Shown: positions 32,227 to 39,043 of the stretch, one piece after another
Layout of the letters: every line of letters begins with the position of its first letter
Position numbering within the stretch: the first letter of the stretch is position 1
Origin: Bacteroidales bacterium
Lineage (GTDB): Bacteria; Bacteroidota; Bacteroidia; Bacteroidales; UBA1556
NCBI GenBank assembly: GCA_027064095.1
Contig: JAMOQI010000080.1
Location: 13,620-77,619 of the forward strand
DNA: 64,000 nt
Reading direction: 5' to 3'
Translations under genes and position numbers: made by a program
The notes under the pieces: generated by a model
What the model saw: only the letters and a program-made list of their open reading frames with translations
Databases searched by the model: none
What the model was told of the DNA's origin: nothing

Positions 32227-32841
32227 CTATTTAATATTTTCTAAACCGGATTTAGCAGATTCGTCACCAGGATTTAACCACATCACTCTTTCAAAAAGCA
32301 CTTTAGCTTCTCGATATTTACTCATATAATAATTATTCCAAGCTGAATTTAAAACCACATCGTAGGTAAAAGGATACATATTAAGTAGCAACTGTAAATA
32401 ATTATCCGCAGCTTTATATTCTGTCCTGTTGAGATAAATCTGCCCTAAACGAAGGTTTGCTGTATAATTATATTTATCAATCTTAAGGACTTTCTTATAC
32501 GCAATAATTACTTTTTCCCAATTTCCCATAGCAGAAGCGGGAAATGTTAAGCCCAACAAAGCCTCAATACTTAGAGGCCTTAATTCGGAGCATTTAGTAT
32601 AATAAGCAAGGCTTTCTGTATATTGACCGGCTTCGTATGATAGCCAAGCCAAGCGAATATTTATTTCATAAGAACTTGCATTATAAACCTTTTTCATCTG
32701 ATTTACCGCCTTTGAATATTCGCCTTTTACTTCATTTGCATAGCTATTTTTAAAAGCAACCTCAATATTATCTTGAGCCATAATAAAATTATAAAAACCT
32801 GCAAAAATTATTATTAAAGTTATTTTTCTTAGAACTTCCAT
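32227..32841 (-). CDS. Exported TPR protein
   Basis: Signal peptide and repeated LRL(A/G)...Y..A...Y helical pairs. Confidence 0.85.
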   Translation of the reverse strand: MEVLRKITLIIIFAGFYNFIMAQDNIEVAFKNSYANEVKGEYSKAVNQMKKVYNASSYEINIRLAWLSYEAGQYTESLAYYTKCSELRPLSIEALLGLTFPASAMGNWEKVIIAYKKVLKIDKYNYTANLRLGQIYLNRTEYKAADNYLQLLLNMYPFTYDVVLNSAWNNYYMSKYREAKVLFERVMWLNPGDESAKSGLENIK

Positions 32842-34148
32842 TGTAATCCTCCTAAAACGTTTATTTGTTGATAATTAATTTTTTCTAAATCGTAAATATT
32901 ACTATAACTAATCTCTTCCTTCTCTGTATATTTCCAAAAATATTGAGCACCTAAAAATAAATTAATATGCTTATTTAATACATAAATAAATTTACTCCCA
33001 ACCAATCCGTGGGTATGGTTGGGTATTTCGTAAGAATAATTATTACTTAAAAGTGTAAAATTCTTTACATCACCATAAATTCCGATAACCTCCAGCCATA
33101 ATTTAGGAATAAGTTTTAAACCAACTTTTTGATAAAATATTGGTCGTAAAGAGCCAATACCATCATGAAATGCATGTAATTGAGTAATAGAATAAAAGTC
33201 AATATTTCCTTTAGGGAACCAAGAGAAAGAAGCTCCTGCTTGTAACTGCAAATCGGATTTTCCAAAGTTAGAAACAACTCCACTTAAACCCCAAATACTA
33301 TTTTTATAGACATGCTCATATTGCATTCCACCCATAAAACTAATTGTTGAAAAATTAGCATAGCCCAAACTCATATCAAGGGAGTCAACAACACCATAAG
33401 TTTTTCCGTTGACTTTCGAAAAACCTCCGGCAATAGAAATATTATTTGTTCTATCAAACCAATACTTTGGCTTAATATTAACAGCATTCTGGCGCAAAGT
33501 AAACCTTCTTATCTCAAATACATTTGAATTCTCCACAGCAGTTATCATTTGTAACTTTGCATAGTTATAATTAAAATCAAGCTCAATATTCTTAGTTATT
33601 AAACCTGAATACATAATACCGGCCAAACCAATAGAATTTTCATAATTAGTTTGAGAAATTAAAGAATTATCATTTGCCCTAAATTTATTAGATTCTATCA
33701 ACGGGACCATATTTCCATATAAACCAAAAAAGTATAAATTACCCTTATAATTAATGCCGGCAAAATTCTCTATGGTATCGGCAACACCCCACAAATTATA
33801 TGCTGCCATATTCTGCTTTGAATACAAAAGAGACAGAAAATACTTTTCTTTAAAAAAGGAATCTAAAATTGCTGACTTATTCTGCTTATATGCTTTATTT
33901 AAATAGAATGAAGACATAAAAAAATTAGAAGTATAGTAATAAGCAACTCCTAATCTATAATTTAGATAATAATAATCAAATCCCTGCTTCTCAGCTTCTT
34001 TACCAAATATTATTAATGAGTCCCAACTAGAAGCATAATAATATGACAATGATTTTGACTCCACCGTCTTAAAATTTATATCCTCCTGTGCATTTGAAAC
34101 TATAACTCCTATTATAAAAGAAAAAACTATAATTAATATAAAACGCAT
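32829..34148 (-). CDS. Outer-membrane protein: N-terminal TPR-like region plus beta-barrel
   Basis: Signal MRFILIIV...SNA, YRLGVAYY helix, alternating aromatic beta-strands, C-terminal GGLQWKF beta-signal. Confidence 0.65.
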   Translation of the reverse strand: MRFILIIVFSFIIGVIVSNAQEDINFKTVESKSLSYYYASSWDSLIIFGKEAEKQGFDYYYLNYRLGVAYYYTSNFFMSSFYLNKAYKQNKSAILDSFFKEKYFLSLLYSKQNMAAYNLWGVADTIENFAGINYKGNLYFFGLYGNMVPLIESNKFRANDNSLISQTNYENSIGLAGIMYSGLITKNIELDFNYNYAKLQMITAVENSNVFEIRRFTLRQNAVNIKPKYWFDRTNNISIAGGFSKVNGKTYGVVDSLDMSLGYANFSTISFMGGMQYEHVYKNSIWGLSGVVSNFGKSDLQLQAGASFSWFPKGNIDFYSITQLHAFHDGIGSLRPIFYQKVGLKLIPKLWLEVIGIYGDVKNFTLLSNNYSYEIPNHTHGLVGSKFIYVLNKHINLFLGAQYFWKYTEKEEISYSNIYDLEKINYQQINVLGGLQWKF

Positions 34149-34152
34149 AATT

Positions 34153-36348
34153 CTATAATCTTTTAAATACAAATTCTTTATTATTCTTCTGTACTTTCCA
34201 AATAAAATCAGTAGAAGAATATTTAAATTCAGCGGTAATATTACCAATAGATTTATTAAATATTATATCATTATACTCAGACTTAAGCTCTAATTCACTA
34301 TCATCAAAAAACTGTTTTCTGGATAAATACCGTATTTTAAAAACAGGTCTAATAAAAATATAAAAAGGAGCTATAAAATCTTGCAAAAACATCAGTATTT
34401 TAGCATTAGAAATGGTTGCAGGTAAAAAGTCATTTACTTCAATACCTTTATAATAACCAAATATCATACGATATGAAGTCAGATAAAACCAATATAAAGG
34501 GTCAGATTTTGAGCCATTGTAGGATGTAAAAATCAGCTCTTCTTCATTAGCTCTAAAATAAGCATAGCTCTTTGTATAAGGACTATATAAATATGTTTGA
34601 TTATAAAAATCCAAACCCACAATCCATTTAATCTGCTCTTTATTAAACCCTTTATCAGAATTAGTTGATACCAACTCCCATTCTATTTCCATGCCTGGCA
34701 CAAACTTAAATTTCGATTTCAGACTAGAGTCTATTTCTATATTACTTACAATATCATTCAATTTAGGAGCCCCATTATTAACAAAATTAAACTTAGAATT
34801 CTCTTCGCTAATATATGGGCCAATGAGATAATTCAATGTCTTGGAACCGACATAAGGAGTAGATTGCAACTGAAAGTGCAAATGAGGAAATGGTGAACGA
34901 CCGGAATTACCTACTGTTGCGAGTATTTCTCCTTTTTTAACATACTGACCTTTTTCAACTCTAAAACTCCCTTTTTTGATATGACTTACTTGGCTGTAGA
35001 GATATTGAGCATGCTTAATTACAATACTATTACCCCAATTATGCTCAATATCCACATCTCCAATCTTGTTATCTTCATACAAATCAACAATTTCCACAAC
35101 TTCACCATCGGCAGGCGCAATTATAGGCTTATTGTAGCAGTAATAATCCTGTGGTAAATTACCATCACCATCATATTCCAAACCATTTTCGGCAATAACA
35201 AAATCCCATGCATGTTTCCAGTCCTTTTGATGAGTATATTCTCCATTATGAGCCTGATTAACAAGCCATTTTCCAGAGAATGGGAAATGAATAGAAATCA
35301 TTGATTTATCACCAAATCTGGTATAATAATTCTGATTAGAATATAAATTTTTCTCCGGAGAAAACTTCTGTAAACTAACCAGTTCCGGCTTTCTAAAAAA
35401 TCGTTCTCGATACTTTAATACTAACAAGAAGCTTATCACAACAATATTTACCGGCAGTGAATATGTTGAAAGTTGAAAAATAGAAAGCACGTCGGTAGTT
35501 CCTGTTACCAATATTGACAACAAAGGAATAAGTAGGACTACTATCACAAAAGAATATATGGAAGGTATAATAAAAAAACCACCAATGGCAATTGCCGAAA
35601 GAATAAAGTTAAAACCTATATATCCATAATTCAATTCTCCCAAACTGGCACCAATAAACTGGTAATAGAAATAGGCTGCATAGAACCCTATTAAACTAAG
35701 CAAGAAAGATATACGAGAATTTATAAGTAAAGCTATTGCAATAATAATACCTGCATAAATATTATATTGAAAGAAAATAGCTCCCAATGAAATAAAGTAT
35801 AGACTTAATGACTCTGGAATGGCAATATCATTAAATACAAAATGCGTTTGCAACAAATCATTACCACCAATCAAAACAATATCATTATAGGCATAAACGC
35901 CTATTTCACTTATTTCTAAACTCCCATAATGTCTGGCAGCAAGGCTAACCATCCATATACCAAACAAAAATGGTAAACTTAAAAACGGCAATGCATATTT
36001 ATTGAGAATAGCTTCCAATACAACAGTTACAAATAAAGTTAATATTGATGAAAATATTAGCAATAACAAAAACTGCCAGTTGAACTGATAATAAATACCT
36101 AATCCTAAACCAACTAATAAGCTATTAAAACCATATAATCCATTAATTATTTTAGTACGATTAAGTCCAAGAAAATAAGCTGTAATATGACTTGAGGCAA
36201 TGGCTATCACTCCGCTAACACCTGCATTTAAATTAAAGAAAGAAACCAATAACAATATCAAACCTAACAATCTACCATCAGAGAAAAATATCTGAGAGTA
36301 AGAATTCAATATGCTATAAACAACCGACTTTATTTTAGACTTAATCAT
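34153..36348 (-). CDS. Urea-transporter-like membrane domain fused to an M23 peptidase domain
   Basis: UT repeats (SQIFF, GLYGFN, LSLPF / GAIFF, GYIGFN, YSLPV), then HAWDF, WGNSIVIKH, VKKGEILATVGNSGRSPFPHLHFQ. Confidence 0.85.
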   Translation of the reverse strand: MIKSKIKSVVYSILNSYSQIFFSDGRLLGLILLLVSFFNLNAGVSGVIAIASSHITAYFLGLNRTKIINGLYGFNSLLVGLGLGIYYQFNWQFLLLLIFSSILTLFVTVVLEAILNKYALPFLSLPFLFGIWMVSLAARHYGSLEISEIGVYAYNDIVLIGGNDLLQTHFVFNDIAIPESLSLYFISLGAIFFQYNIYAGIIIAIALLINSRISFLLSLIGFYAAYFYYQFIGASLGELNYGYIGFNFILSAIAIGGFFIIPSIYSFVIVVLLIPLLSILVTGTTDVLSIFQLSTYSLPVNIVVISFLLVLKYRERFFRKPELVSLQKFSPEKNLYSNQNYYTRFGDKSMISIHFPFSGKWLVNQAHNGEYTHQKDWKHAWDFVIAENGLEYDGDGNLPQDYYCYNKPIIAPADGEVVEIVDLYEDNKIGDVDIEHNWGNSIVIKHAQYLYSQVSHIKKGSFRVEKGQYVKKGEILATVGNSGRSPFPHLHFQLQSTPYVGSKTLNYLIGPYISEENSKFNFVNNGAPKLNDIVSNIEIDSSLKSKFKFVPGMEIEWELVSTNSDKGFNKEQIKWIVGLDFYNQTYLYSPYTKSYAYFRANEEELIFTSYNGSKSDPLYWFYLTSYRMIFGYYKGIEVNDFLPATISNAKILMFLQDFIAPFYIFIRPVFKIRYLSRKQFFDDSELELKSEYNDIIFNKSIGNITAEFKYSSTDFIWKVQKNNKEFVFKRL

Positions 36349-36359
36349 ATAATAAAATA

Positions 36360-37718
36360 TTAGAGCTCAAATGTACTCAAATGTTCCGGAATCTTCTCAA
36401 AATTAGAGATACTGCTCATATCTTCACCTTTACGAATCACCTCTACTTTAGAATCTTCAGTAATCATTACCACCTTGGGACGTAGGGTAATAAACTGCAT
36501 CCACTGAGTCATATTATAAGCTCCAACGCGATGAATCACCACATTATCGCCTTTACTTAAAGGAGGCAAGCTTGCATTATCCCTAATAACATCAATATTC
36601 ATACAAAGTGGACCGTAGAGAACAGTATCTTCCACATGATGTGAGAACTCTTGAGCAGGAGTAATCTTATGATCGTACCAAAAACTTGTAAAAAGTAAAT
36701 TTACACCTATATTGAGAACGGTAGTACGCTTTCCTGTACTGCTTCTTTTGTTGGCAATAACTGTACCCAAAAGATAACCTGCATCATCAACTAATGCACG
36801 ACCTGTTTCCAATATCAAAGTTGGTAAATGATCGGGATGGATATTACTATTCAAGAGAGCAGAAGTAATAGCCTCTGCATAATCATCAAAAGTAGGGTTG
36901 GTATCTTCGGCAGGCAAATAAGCACCTTTAAGAGTATTTTTTGATGCAAAGCCTCCACCAAGGTCAATATATTTCACATAATGATCATACTTCTGTTTTA
37001 AGCCAACAGCAAGGTCAGCAAGCTTAGTTGCTGCTACACCATATGGTTCAGCAGTCATCATATATGTTCCAATGTGTGCATGAAGTCCTATAAGATCCAT
37101 TTTCTTTGACATCATAATCTTATTAAGAGCATCCCAAGCCTGCCCATTCTCATAATTAAATCCAAAACGGTCCCACATAGGATAAATTCCAGTATCCATA
37201 TTCACACGAATAGCCACTTGGGGTCGAATATTTAGTTCTTCCACTAAATTTAATATCATATAATACTCATCAAGGTGGTCGATATGAATAAGTGATTTAT
37301 TCTTAATAGCCATACGAAGATCATCCTCTGTTTTATCCGGTCCATTAAAGATAATATACCTACCATCAACACCATTGCCTCTAGCCTTATCATACTCAAA
37401 ACCAGAAACCACCTCTGCCCATGAGCCCTCTTGGTGGAAAGTGTTACATACAGCACTTATATAATTTGTCTTATAGCTCCAAGCAAACTGTACTTTAGGA
37501 TATCTAGTGCTGAAAGCACGATAAGCATTTCTGAAAGTTTTGCGCAATGTACTCTCAGATATTACATATACAGGAGAACCATGTTCTTCAATAATATCTT
37601 TTACAGCAACATTATCAATATGAGTTTTTGGAACAAACTCAGTCCTCATACCAAACTTATTTGGCATAGCATTCTCTAATCTTTTTATAAGCGGGCGTTC
37701 ATATTTCAATTTAGTCAT
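36360..37718 (-). CDS. Fold-type III PLP decarboxylase (LysA/ODC-like, atypical)
   Basis: GSPVYV, WSYKTN (PLP Lys), HAHIG, DLGGGF, ETGR, GPLCMNID, GAY. Confidence 0.85.
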   Translation of the reverse strand: MTKLKYERPLIKRLENAMPNKFGMRTEFVPKTHIDNVAVKDIIEEHGSPVYVISESTLRKTFRNAYRAFSTRYPKVQFAWSYKTNYISAVCNTFHQEGSWAEVVSGFEYDKARGNGVDGRYIIFNGPDKTEDDLRMAIKNKSLIHIDHLDEYYMILNLVEELNIRPQVAIRVNMDTGIYPMWDRFGFNYENGQAWDALNKIMMSKKMDLIGLHAHIGTYMMTAEPYGVAATKLADLAVGLKQKYDHYVKYIDLGGGFASKNTLKGAYLPAEDTNPTFDDYAEAITSALLNSNIHPDHLPTLILETGRALVDDAGYLLGTVIANKRSSTGKRTTVLNIGVNLLFTSFWYDHKITPAQEFSHHVEDTVLYGPLCMNIDVIRDNASLPPLSKGDNVVIHRVGAYNMTQWMQFITLRPKVVMITEDSKVEVIRKGEDMSSISNFEKIPEHLSTFEL

Positions 37719-37743: not shown

Positions 37744-38787
37744 TTATAATTCTCCTTGTGAAGATATTTTTTCAAATTCATCAATATTAACAATCATATC
37801 GTAGGCATAGCGGACAAACATTTTACCAATATCGTAACATTGATATGGTTTAATGGTATTACCAACAGCTAAATTTACCAATGCTTCAGGAATGTTTTGT
37901 CCAACACCAACAGCCAAATATATCCAAGCAGGCATTCTAGGATTTATTTCCAAAAGATGATAAGTGCCATCTTGCGAACGCATCAGTTCTAACTCAAATC
38001 CTCCACGCCATTTAGTTTGTTTTATAAAATGATGAGTAAGCTCAATAAGTTCACTATTATCAATAGATATTCCTCCCCAAGCTTTGCCTTTATCTGTAAT
38101 ATATTGTTTACGCATTGGCACTGCAGCAATAGTATTTCCTTCACCATCGCCAAGCCCTGTAACATTATACTCATCTCCACGGATATATTCCTGCACCACA
38201 ATTGGCAAACCCCATTTTGCACTTACTTTATTGAAGAATGTCTTGGCCTGCTCAATATTATAAGCGATATATGCATCGTAGAATTTGCCTTTTACTAATA
38301 TAGGAAAAGAATAATCGCTACCTAGCTGATACAATTCAGAAGGGTCATAAACTGCTTTAGACTGAGGAACATTAATATCATACTTTTTACCAAATTCCGG
38401 CAAATTAACTTTATGTCTTTCCTCAAATTGTTGTGAAGTAGGCAAGAAAGTTTTAATATTCATATCTAACAGTGCATTCTCAATTTTCATAAAAGAATAT
38501 AGTTCAGCATCAAAATTTGGAATAATAACATTAATGTTTTCCTTAGTATTTATATATTCTAATCTAGCTTTAAGAACTTCTGTTCCTGCCGAAGGATAAG
38601 GTATTTGATATATTTTATCAAAAAGATCGTGCATATAAATTCCAGGCTCCAACGACTCGTAACTAAATCCAATAAGCCTTGCATCAAATGAAGTTGCTTC
38701 TTTAAGTCCTCGCGCCACAGCAACACCTGGTCCAGGATTATCGATGGCATTTAAACCACTTAACGCAATTGTATATTTAGGCTTCAT
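37744..38787 (-). CDS. ATP-grasp carboxylate-amine ligase
   Basis: PILVKG, VQEYIRGDEY, WRGGFELE, LLEINPR. Start could also be 38805. Confidence 0.9.
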   Translation of the reverse strand: MKPKYTIALSGLNAIDNPGPGVAVARGLKEATSFDARLIGFSYESLEPGIYMHDLFDKIYQIPYPSAGTEVLKARLEYINTKENINVIIPNFDAELYSFMKIENALLDMNIKTFLPTSQQFEERHKVNLPEFGKKYDINVPQSKAVYDPSELYQLGSDYSFPILVKGKFYDAYIAYNIEQAKTFFNKVSAKWGLPIVVQEYIRGDEYNVTGLGDGEGNTIAAVPMRKQYITDKGKAWGGISIDNSELIELTHHFIKQTKWRGGFELELMRSQDGTYHLLEINPRMPAWIYLAVGVGQNIPEALVNLAVGNTIKPYQCYDIGKMFVRYAYDMIVNIDEFEKISSQGEL

Positions 38788-38791
38788 AATA

Positions 38792-39043
38792 CTATGCTTT
38801 ATCATTATCTGTTAACTGATATTGTGATATCATCTCCTTAAAATCTTGCAAATCTTTATCAAAAGTATTAGCATTAGTATCGTATTTACTTAGAAAATAC
38901 TCACAAATTTCGTTATCGCTCTTTCCTTCTTTTATCATATTCAAAATTTCAGTTCCTGTTTGATTTACTGAAAATGATTCTCCTGAACTTGGATTGAAGA
39001 GGAAACCACTGTCGCTAATTGCAATATTTTTATTAATACTCAT
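38792..39043 (-). CDS. Stand-alone PqqD-family protein / RiPP recognition element
   Basis: 83 aa, GFLFNPSSGESFSVNQTGTEILNMI followed by helices (KYD...FDKDLQDF), the PqqD beta3-alpha3 pattern. Confidence 0.85.
   Translation of the reverse strand: MSINKNIAISDSGFLFNPSSGESFSVNQTGTEILNMIKEGKSDNEICEYFLSKYDTNANTFDKDLQDFKEMISQYQLTDNDKA

Follow-up and report, generated by a model that had tools for sequence, protein, structure and literature searches.

Gene content of the locus

The window, that is, the whole stretch of 64,000 nucleotides analysed here from a Bacteroidales bacterium (contig JAMOQI010000080.1), contains a minus-strand operon of six genes in the order PqqD-family protein, ATP-grasp ligase, decarboxylase, urea-transporter/M23 peptidase fusion, 472-aa open reading frame (ORF) and TPR protein, with the PqqD gene lying two genes upstream of the decarboxylase. 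The following features, given in window coordinates, are considered below.

38792..39043, minus strand: 83-aa protein of the PqqD family (PF05402 above cut-off), assigned from its sequence as a stand-alone RRE
37744..38805, minus strand: ATP-grasp ligase (carbamoyl-phosphate-synthase-like group), which in other bacteria occurs naturally fused to the decarboxylase
36360-37718, minus strand: decarboxylase ORF, 452 aa, third gene of the operon run
37718-37629, minus strand: codons 1-30 of the decarboxylase
37644..37718, minus strand: whole N-terminal arm of the decarboxylase, residues 1-25, pLDDT <50, with residues 3-14 as the predicted PqqD interface
37686..37703, minus strand: candidate RRE recognition motif Y6-x-x-P9-x-I11 of the arm, placed by sequence, conservation and model contacts
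37650..37658, minus strand: K21-F22-G23, a second conserved block 15 residues past the Tyr, placed by conservation
34153..36348, minus strand: fusion of a urea-transporter-like membrane domain with an M23 peptidase, zinc site H373, D382, H489 and H491 intact
32227..34247, minus strand: two downstream envelope-type genes, the 472-aa ORF without a family match and the TPR protein

PqqD was found upstream of the decarboxylase in 73 of 80 genome loci, the remaining 7 being cut by contig ends, and in 69 of 80 metagenome loci, where 10 were cut short and one (L164) had no PqqD within 3 kb. Among 301 genomes of one class, 42 carried the decarboxylase and 43 this PqqD family, with all 42 shared, and the one extra PqqD-bearing genome is 61% complete; since related genomes do not count as independent cases and the operon moves as a unit, this co-occurrence shows partnership, not contact. 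The urea-transporter/M23 gene was present in 72/80 loci, and the 472-aa ORF and TPR genes also travel with the operon (60 and 63 of 80 loci, respectively). The zinc-site residues of the M23 domain, which we take to be its metal ligands from the pattern usual for this family, were invariant in 67/67 sequences, and in 5/5 genomes whose locus lacked the fusion gene it was kept elsewhere.

Several departures from the standard arrangement were observed. In one genome (G089) the operon is split, with ligase, decarboxylase and channel on one contig (L116:4735-9762), where an opposite-strand 146-aa gene is inserted, and PqqD on another beside envelope genes (L206:1501-1743), and the Tyr/Asp pair described below is kept. 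An optional gene of 250-305 aa lies between decarboxylase and channel at L012:9443-10273, L013:9375-10289 and L038:5039-5785, and upstream of PqqD in 27/80 loci (e.g. L056:5916-6515) there is a gene family of ~200 aa that may encode a metal-binding AraC-type regulator and is absent from the upstream neighbours in the window. The decarboxylase gene is in two pieces at L064:8001-9361, and in two single records (P0437, P0264) a partial decarboxylase is joined to a urea-transporter domain by fusion or frameshift. A second, lone PqqD paralogue without an evident partner occurs ~5.5 kb upstream of the operon copy at L026:842-1087.

The decarboxylase is a PLP enzyme of the alanine-racemase fold, with the catalytic residues K83 and C372 and the adjoining M373 retained in 79/79 sequences. 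Its best match by both sequence and fold was FigC (7KH2; E 8e-56), compared with E 1e-21 for BtrK. The substrate loop reads Cys-Met in 79/79 sequences, as against Cys-Glu in LysA (1TUF), where the loop Glu has a role, and the protein fell short of the diaminopimelate decarboxylase model TIGR01048 (207.9 vs 297.9 bits). It likewise fell short of the N-citrylornithine decarboxylase (FslC/FigC) model NF041039 (226.4 vs 500 bits), and its neighbour is an ATP-grasp and no NIS synthetase. The subfamily acts on acylated or tethered substrates, as exemplified by BtrK, which decarboxylates carrier-bound glutamate (PMC7857480). No second LysA-like gene was detected at E 1e-20 in the window's 85.6%-complete genome, and several relatives have both.

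The N-terminal arm of the decarboxylase

The original prediction described the start of the decarboxylase as an extension of ~30 residues bearing the lasso-type leader motif YxxPxL, and the N-terminal sequence that it quoted is correct (window 37718-37629, minus strand). Y6 and P9 are indeed present, and the third motif residue is I11, giving YxxPxI, which still fits the published RRE-bound consensus [Y/W]xxPx[L/V/I/F/A] (PMC13381572). The extension is real and conserved, and it is shorter than had been proposed: residue 16 of M. jannaschii LysA and position 14 of the FslC model both align with decarboxylase residue 34, so only ~18-20 residues are additional. Residues 1-25 had pLDDT <50 in an AlphaFold2 monomer model with a mean of 88.8, and the arm is thus predicted to be disordered in the monomer, which places the consensus in an unstructured segment.

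Such a motif occurs in the first 17 residues of 13/1196 long ORFs of the genome; a single copy therefore proves little, and the case rests on conservation. Y6 and P9 were both found in 118/120 nearest homologues, and again in 118/120 homologues of a 47%-identical relative, a set that includes entries named Persephonella, Hydrogenothermus, Calditrichia and Eremiobacteraeota. Among 150 non-redundant operon copies (<95% identity), position 6 was Tyr (93) or Phe (57) and P9 was invariant (150/150), so that the alignment of homologues envisaged in the original prediction bore out conservation of the motif. The second block was equally well kept in these copies (K21 150/150, G23 148/150), and the spacing from Tyr to Lys was 15 in 390/391 scored sequences, with a variable length from there to the core of the enzyme (43 of these arm-to-core distances being mis-anchored). 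The synonymous codons of the motif vary freely in 106 loci, which points to selection on the protein.

A deep comparison took in 153 rows, made up of 150 representatives at 50% identity and three others, and 116 of these had enough coverage to enter the tree. The motif was carried by 18 of the 116, 17 of them in one clade of 45, and by 0/14 long N-termini of the more distant decarboxylases outside that clade. Among the 28 rows closest to the window it was absent from 11, in some cases perhaps through wrong starts. The most distant carriers retain only [Y/W/F]xxPx[hydrophobic], Trp forms included. Lys21, the only acylatable near-invariant residue of the arm, is replaced in three of the 120 homologues of the 47%-identical relative (twice by Pro, once by Arg), and several distant representatives whose catalytic Lys and Cys are intact have Pro, His, Thr or Ser there.

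A search for longer proteins gave 15 matches, 14 of which are fusions of ATP-grasp and decarboxylase. The motif was kept in 14/14 fusions, 40-47 residues before the core and inside diverged linkers; it therefore need not be N-terminal, nor is it made redundant by fusion of the two enzymes. Eleven of the 14 form one clade (support 100) and all of these have Arg at the K21 position, which indicates that an amine at the Lys21 position is not obligatory; read-through may account for the other three. Most of the fused clade, and distant members too, have lost the Gly of K-F-G. The fused clade (P0249, P0434-P0436, P0438-P0442, P0444 and P0445) consists of proteins of 858-934 aa with long Pro/Ala/Ser-rich linkers that contain the motif, and one of its members has a split form in its protein cluster.

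The contexts of motif-less relatives were also searched. A plasmid search with P0265 returned no matches, and three viral scans returned one trio and one fragment. The trio lies on a 65.7-kb viral contig (L236:2761-5239) and encodes PqqD, ATP-grasp and decarboxylase with overlapping stops and starts. No frame near the start of its decarboxylase encodes the motif, its PqqD is retained with Ser at position 27, and no envelope genes were found within the 9 kb examined; both partners may be decaying in this copy, or the RRE may serve a second purpose. The expectation that the motif is limited to PqqD-linked copies was thus addressed in part, with this one phage copy having PqqD and no motif. A plasmid match (H2) and five further loci (L117-L121) proved to be unrelated decarboxylases and were set aside.

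The PqqD protein and its predicted contact with the arm

The operon PqqD is the sole PF05402 match in the window's genome. Its best solved relatives by profile were TbiB1, TfuB1, PbaB1 and LppB, with TbiB1 ranking first by both profile (E 3e-13) and fold (TM 0.85), and it has the three strands, three helices and length below 100 aa of the stand-alone B1-type fold. In a profile alignment to 9X8Z, its N27, Y54, D64 and F68 align with N33, Y60, D70 and F74 of LppB. These LppB residues bind the leader Tyr and Pro, with D70 bonding the Tyr and N33 fixing the Pro kink in the crystal structure of the LppB-leader complex, and the N33A substitution nearly abolishes binding (PMC13381572). N27 was kept in 163/164 and F/Y68 in 164/164 PqqD copies, and the outer strands are also conserved (A8, S10, G13, F16, G21 and E/D22 in 157-163 of 164), while Ser/Thr23 stands in 163/164 copies where lasso RREs have Tyr. 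As judged from these alignments, the neighbouring PqqD is a TbiB1-like RRE that carries the four YxxP-binding residues.

The modelling of PqqD with the arm suggested in the original prediction was carried out by folding one decarboxylase chain, the ligase and PqqD together with 79-row alignments. The model scored 0.73, compared with 0.01 for the best of three controls; the score mark applied is reached by 116/157 solved complexes and 2/215 mismatched pairs, counts that are only rough for a three-chain job. At least 75% of contacts were common to the runs, and the partner had a pLDDT of at least 80. The confident interface is predicted to bring decarboxylase residues 3-14, together with 325, 329, 359, 361, 386 and 388-389, against the leader cleft of the RRE, the closest predicted pairs being Y6-Y54, P9-N27/F68/D64 and I11-V26. 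No ATP-grasp residue is listed in the confident PqqD interface, which bears neither way on binding between PqqD and the ligase. Complexes of this kind have been solved (5V1U, 6JX3 and 9X8Z), and the pass may therefore reflect likeness to these, or their having been learnt by the predictor, and not binding by this particular copy.

Residue pairing between the two proteins was analysed in 180 pairs (164 operon pairs plus 16 from new genomes), after removal of 11 duplicates, the phage locus, one locus that had no PqqD within reach, and L026, where the second PqqD had been picked. Tyr6 was paired with Asp (93), Asn (12) or His (1) at RRE position 64 (105/106 Asp/Asn), and Phe6 with Tyr (53), Ser (15), Thr (3) and His, Leu and Val (1 each), never with Asp or Asn (0/74). 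This pair, which corresponds to the hydrogen-bond pair of the solved LppB-leader complex, came first among 37,516 column pairs when scored by normalised mutual information and second when scored by corrected mutual information. On the tree, however, position 6 changes only 5 times and position 64 only 4 times, and an independent-pairs test gave 3 pairs the same, 0 opposite and 1 without difference (p 0.25). A branch-overlap test did not single out Y6-D64, as 150/567 comparable column pairs reached the same value, and N20, which lies outside the modelled interface, tracks position 64 equally well. The swap is therefore suggestive only as support for the contact.

A separate precursor was sought at three levels. 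No small ORF recurred beyond the six genes, except for shadow frames, among ORF families of at least 25 aa in 80 loci. Since YxxP precursors of 21-22 residues have been missed by gene finders (PMC13622209), ORFs were further scanned down to 10 codons in 86 sequences (810 rows), with no recurring tiny YxxP ORF among the matches listed. A profile of residues 1-24 likewise revealed no free-standing arm-like copy in 118,773 genome and 70,779 locus segments, where the decarboxylase itself scored 46.8 bits and the best non-decarboxylase segments 11.5 and 12.6 bits (genome and loci, respectively); this search covers arm-like sequence in an 85.6%-complete genome. The statement in the original prediction that no precursor gene is in view agrees with these results. 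Its main proposal, that PqqD docks on the arm as on a pseudo-leader, gains good in silico support from the pocket residues, the complex model and the co-occurrence, with the lack of a separate precursor also in its favour and the residue swap adding no more than a hint. We consider it very probable, as a prediction, that the RRE binds the decarboxylase arm.

Possible roles of the arm and their significance

As to what binding would achieve, we lean, with some reserve, towards the RRE acting, in bound form, as an accessory subunit of the ligase and decarboxylase, with the tag as its docking site and not a precursor. The survival of the motif in 14/14 fusions, together with the replacement of Lys21 in the fused clade, makes it likely that the arm serves for docking and is neither a modified substrate nor a mere tether. 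In the modelled complex, Y6 and P9 would sit in two pockets of the RRE, residues 10-13 would pair with its third strand, and the RRE would also rest on the decarboxylase's C-terminal domain. Binding could then order the arm and hold the K/R-F-G segment at a fixed distance, and the ordered arm might switch on or position the enzymes, by analogy with a leader-bound RRE and its lasso partner enzymes. More speculatively, the ligase might attach an acyl group to a diamino acid at its side-chain amine, and decarboxylation of the acylated acid by the FigC-like enzyme might then give an N-acyl-diamine that would be handled by the membrane channel-peptidase.

The arm could instead be a working leader that the RRE presents to the M23 peptidase for cutting at or near K-F|G, a cut that would mature the decarboxylase or free a peptide whose new end is the substrate of the ligase. 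That the M23 domain would lie in the cytoplasm is presumed from the usual topology of urea transporters. Lasso precursors carry YxxPxL at -17 to -12 and Gly at +1 (PMC10368454), and taking Y6 as -17 puts G23 at +1, in the lasso register; the fixed Tyr-Lys spacing beside a variable distance to the core, the invariant zinc site, the retention of the fusion gene elsewhere in genomes without it at the locus, and the finding that peptidases from different families receive leaders from RREs (PMC13381572) fit the same idea. Position -2, however, is Lys/Arg and not Thr/Ile, and Ser/Thr23 of PqqD replaces the lasso Tyr, taken as Tyr33, that is reported to help form the peptidase pocket (PMC10368454). 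Comparing K-F-G with the presence of the peptidase yielded no contrasting cases, as all five genomes lacking it at the locus had kept the gene. As regards a RiPP core in general, no modifiable residue is conserved at depth, and K-F|G is a possible cleavage point. Because distant members have lost the Gly and position -2 is Lys/Arg, we regard a working leader as unlikely; if it were true, precursor and maturase would be one gene product, processed at a membrane channel.

Nor do we think it probable that the RRE-arm pair serves mainly as a tether that would channel substrate by keeping the ligase, or the membrane channel-peptidase, close to the decarboxylase. The fusion of ligase and decarboxylase in 14 protein clusters implies that the two act together, the conserved outer strands are what a second binding face of the RRE would lead one to expect, and discrete RREs are known to scaffold modifying enzymes (PMC7470986). 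A tether for the ligase would nevertheless be redundant in the fused proteins, where 11/11 clade members keep the motif at one and the same site in linkers that have otherwise diverged, an argument that leaves room for tethering to the membrane component. The same observation makes assembly of an RRE/ATP-grasp/decarboxylase complex, the purpose first proposed, unlikely to be the whole story, as the motif persists in proteins that already join ligase and decarboxylase in one chain.

It is improbable, too, that the arm has a structural or active-site role in the decarboxylase oligomer and a leader likeness that is incidental or vestigial, with PqqD binding, for example, a peptide encoded outside the locus. 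The phage trio that keeps PqqD without the motif and the covariation of positions 6 and 64, which is not significant on the tree, would suit this explanation, as would the fact that gene finders have missed tiny YxxP precursors (PMC13622209) and the genome's completeness of 85.6%. Against it, the deepest-conserved part of the arm is exactly the RRE consensus, with Trp, Tyr and Phe exchanging, the arm is predicted to be disordered in the monomer and to form an interface with PqqD, and neither an arm-like short ORF in the genome and locus segments nor, among the matches listed, a recurring tiny YxxP ORF was found. Least probable of all, and very much so, is a built-in carrier whose Lys21 is acylated by the ligase and whose tethered acid is decarboxylated in place, as BtrJ and BtrK work on BtrI: the invariance of K21 in the operon copies, the carrier-bound glutamate of BtrK (PMC7857480) and the YxxP peptide that scaffolds a small molecule in fosfazinomycin biosynthesis (PMC13622209) speak for it, but the Arg of 11/11 fused clade members, the other replacements of Lys21 in enzymes with intact catalytic residues and the closer match to FigC than to BtrK speak against it. 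The alternative in the original prediction, that the extension is itself the modified substrate, loses ground on the same substitutions.

The docking arrangement that we favour shares much with characterised systems. Like the lasso B1 proteins in complex with their leaders (TbiB1-TbiA, 5V1U; TfuB1/FusB1, 6JX3) and LppB-LppA (9X8Z), it involves the same stand-alone RRE fold, the Asn/Tyr/Asp/Phe pocket in register, a [Y/W]xxPx[L/V/I] ligand and predicted binding by strand addition. Unlike those systems, the motif here sits in a 452-aa enzyme or internal to a fusion, the RRE has Ser/Thr in place of the B1 Tyr, the -2 position is Lys/Arg, and the conserved set of six genes includes no separate precursor, B2 peptidase or macrolactam cyclase. 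FzmZ/FzmA/FzmT of fosfazinomycin biosynthesis likewise combine an RRE and YxxP for a small molecule and not a classical RiPP, but the peptide there is a free 22-mer modified at its C-terminus (PMC13622209), whereas here it is fused to an enzyme and has no conserved modified residue. The closest decarboxylase is that of the rhizoferrin pair FigA/FigC (FslA/FslC), with which the Cys-Met substrate loop and the logic of acylation followed by decarboxylation are shared; identity to FigC is 29%, an ATP-grasp takes the place of the NIS synthetase, and no RRE is described for the rhizoferrin route in the available portions of the sources. Butirosin BtrI/BtrJ/BtrK also unite a small accessory protein, a ligase (BtrJ, presumably an ATP-grasp) and a decarboxylase of the alanine-racemase fold, but the small protein here is an RRE and not an acyl carrier protein, and there is no conserved attachment residue.

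The full-text literature searched, which takes in few subscription papers, gave no account of the operon or of an RRE bound to an enzyme's own tail; the RRE-Finder data sets may list the family, and the available portions of PMC10352776 and PMC8939145 make no mention of the operon. What lies at the locus is thus a known recognition module in a setting without prior description in that literature.

Stand-alone RREs serve as markers of RiPP clusters, and many of them have no precursor in view; in the RRE-Finder survey, about half of the discrete lasso-type matches lacked lasso machinery (PMC7470986). The six-gene operon is widespread in Bacteroidota, and relatives of its decarboxylase are named from Aquificota, Calditrichota and Proteobacteria. 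Should the ligand of an RRE be a leader-like tag carried by an adjacent enzyme, this would provide an answer for some of the precursor-less orphan RREs, and the RRE module would be a plain protein-docking device outside RiPP maturation. A recognition module of natural-product biosynthesis would then have been reused to organise enzymes, which would give a handle on the six-gene operon.
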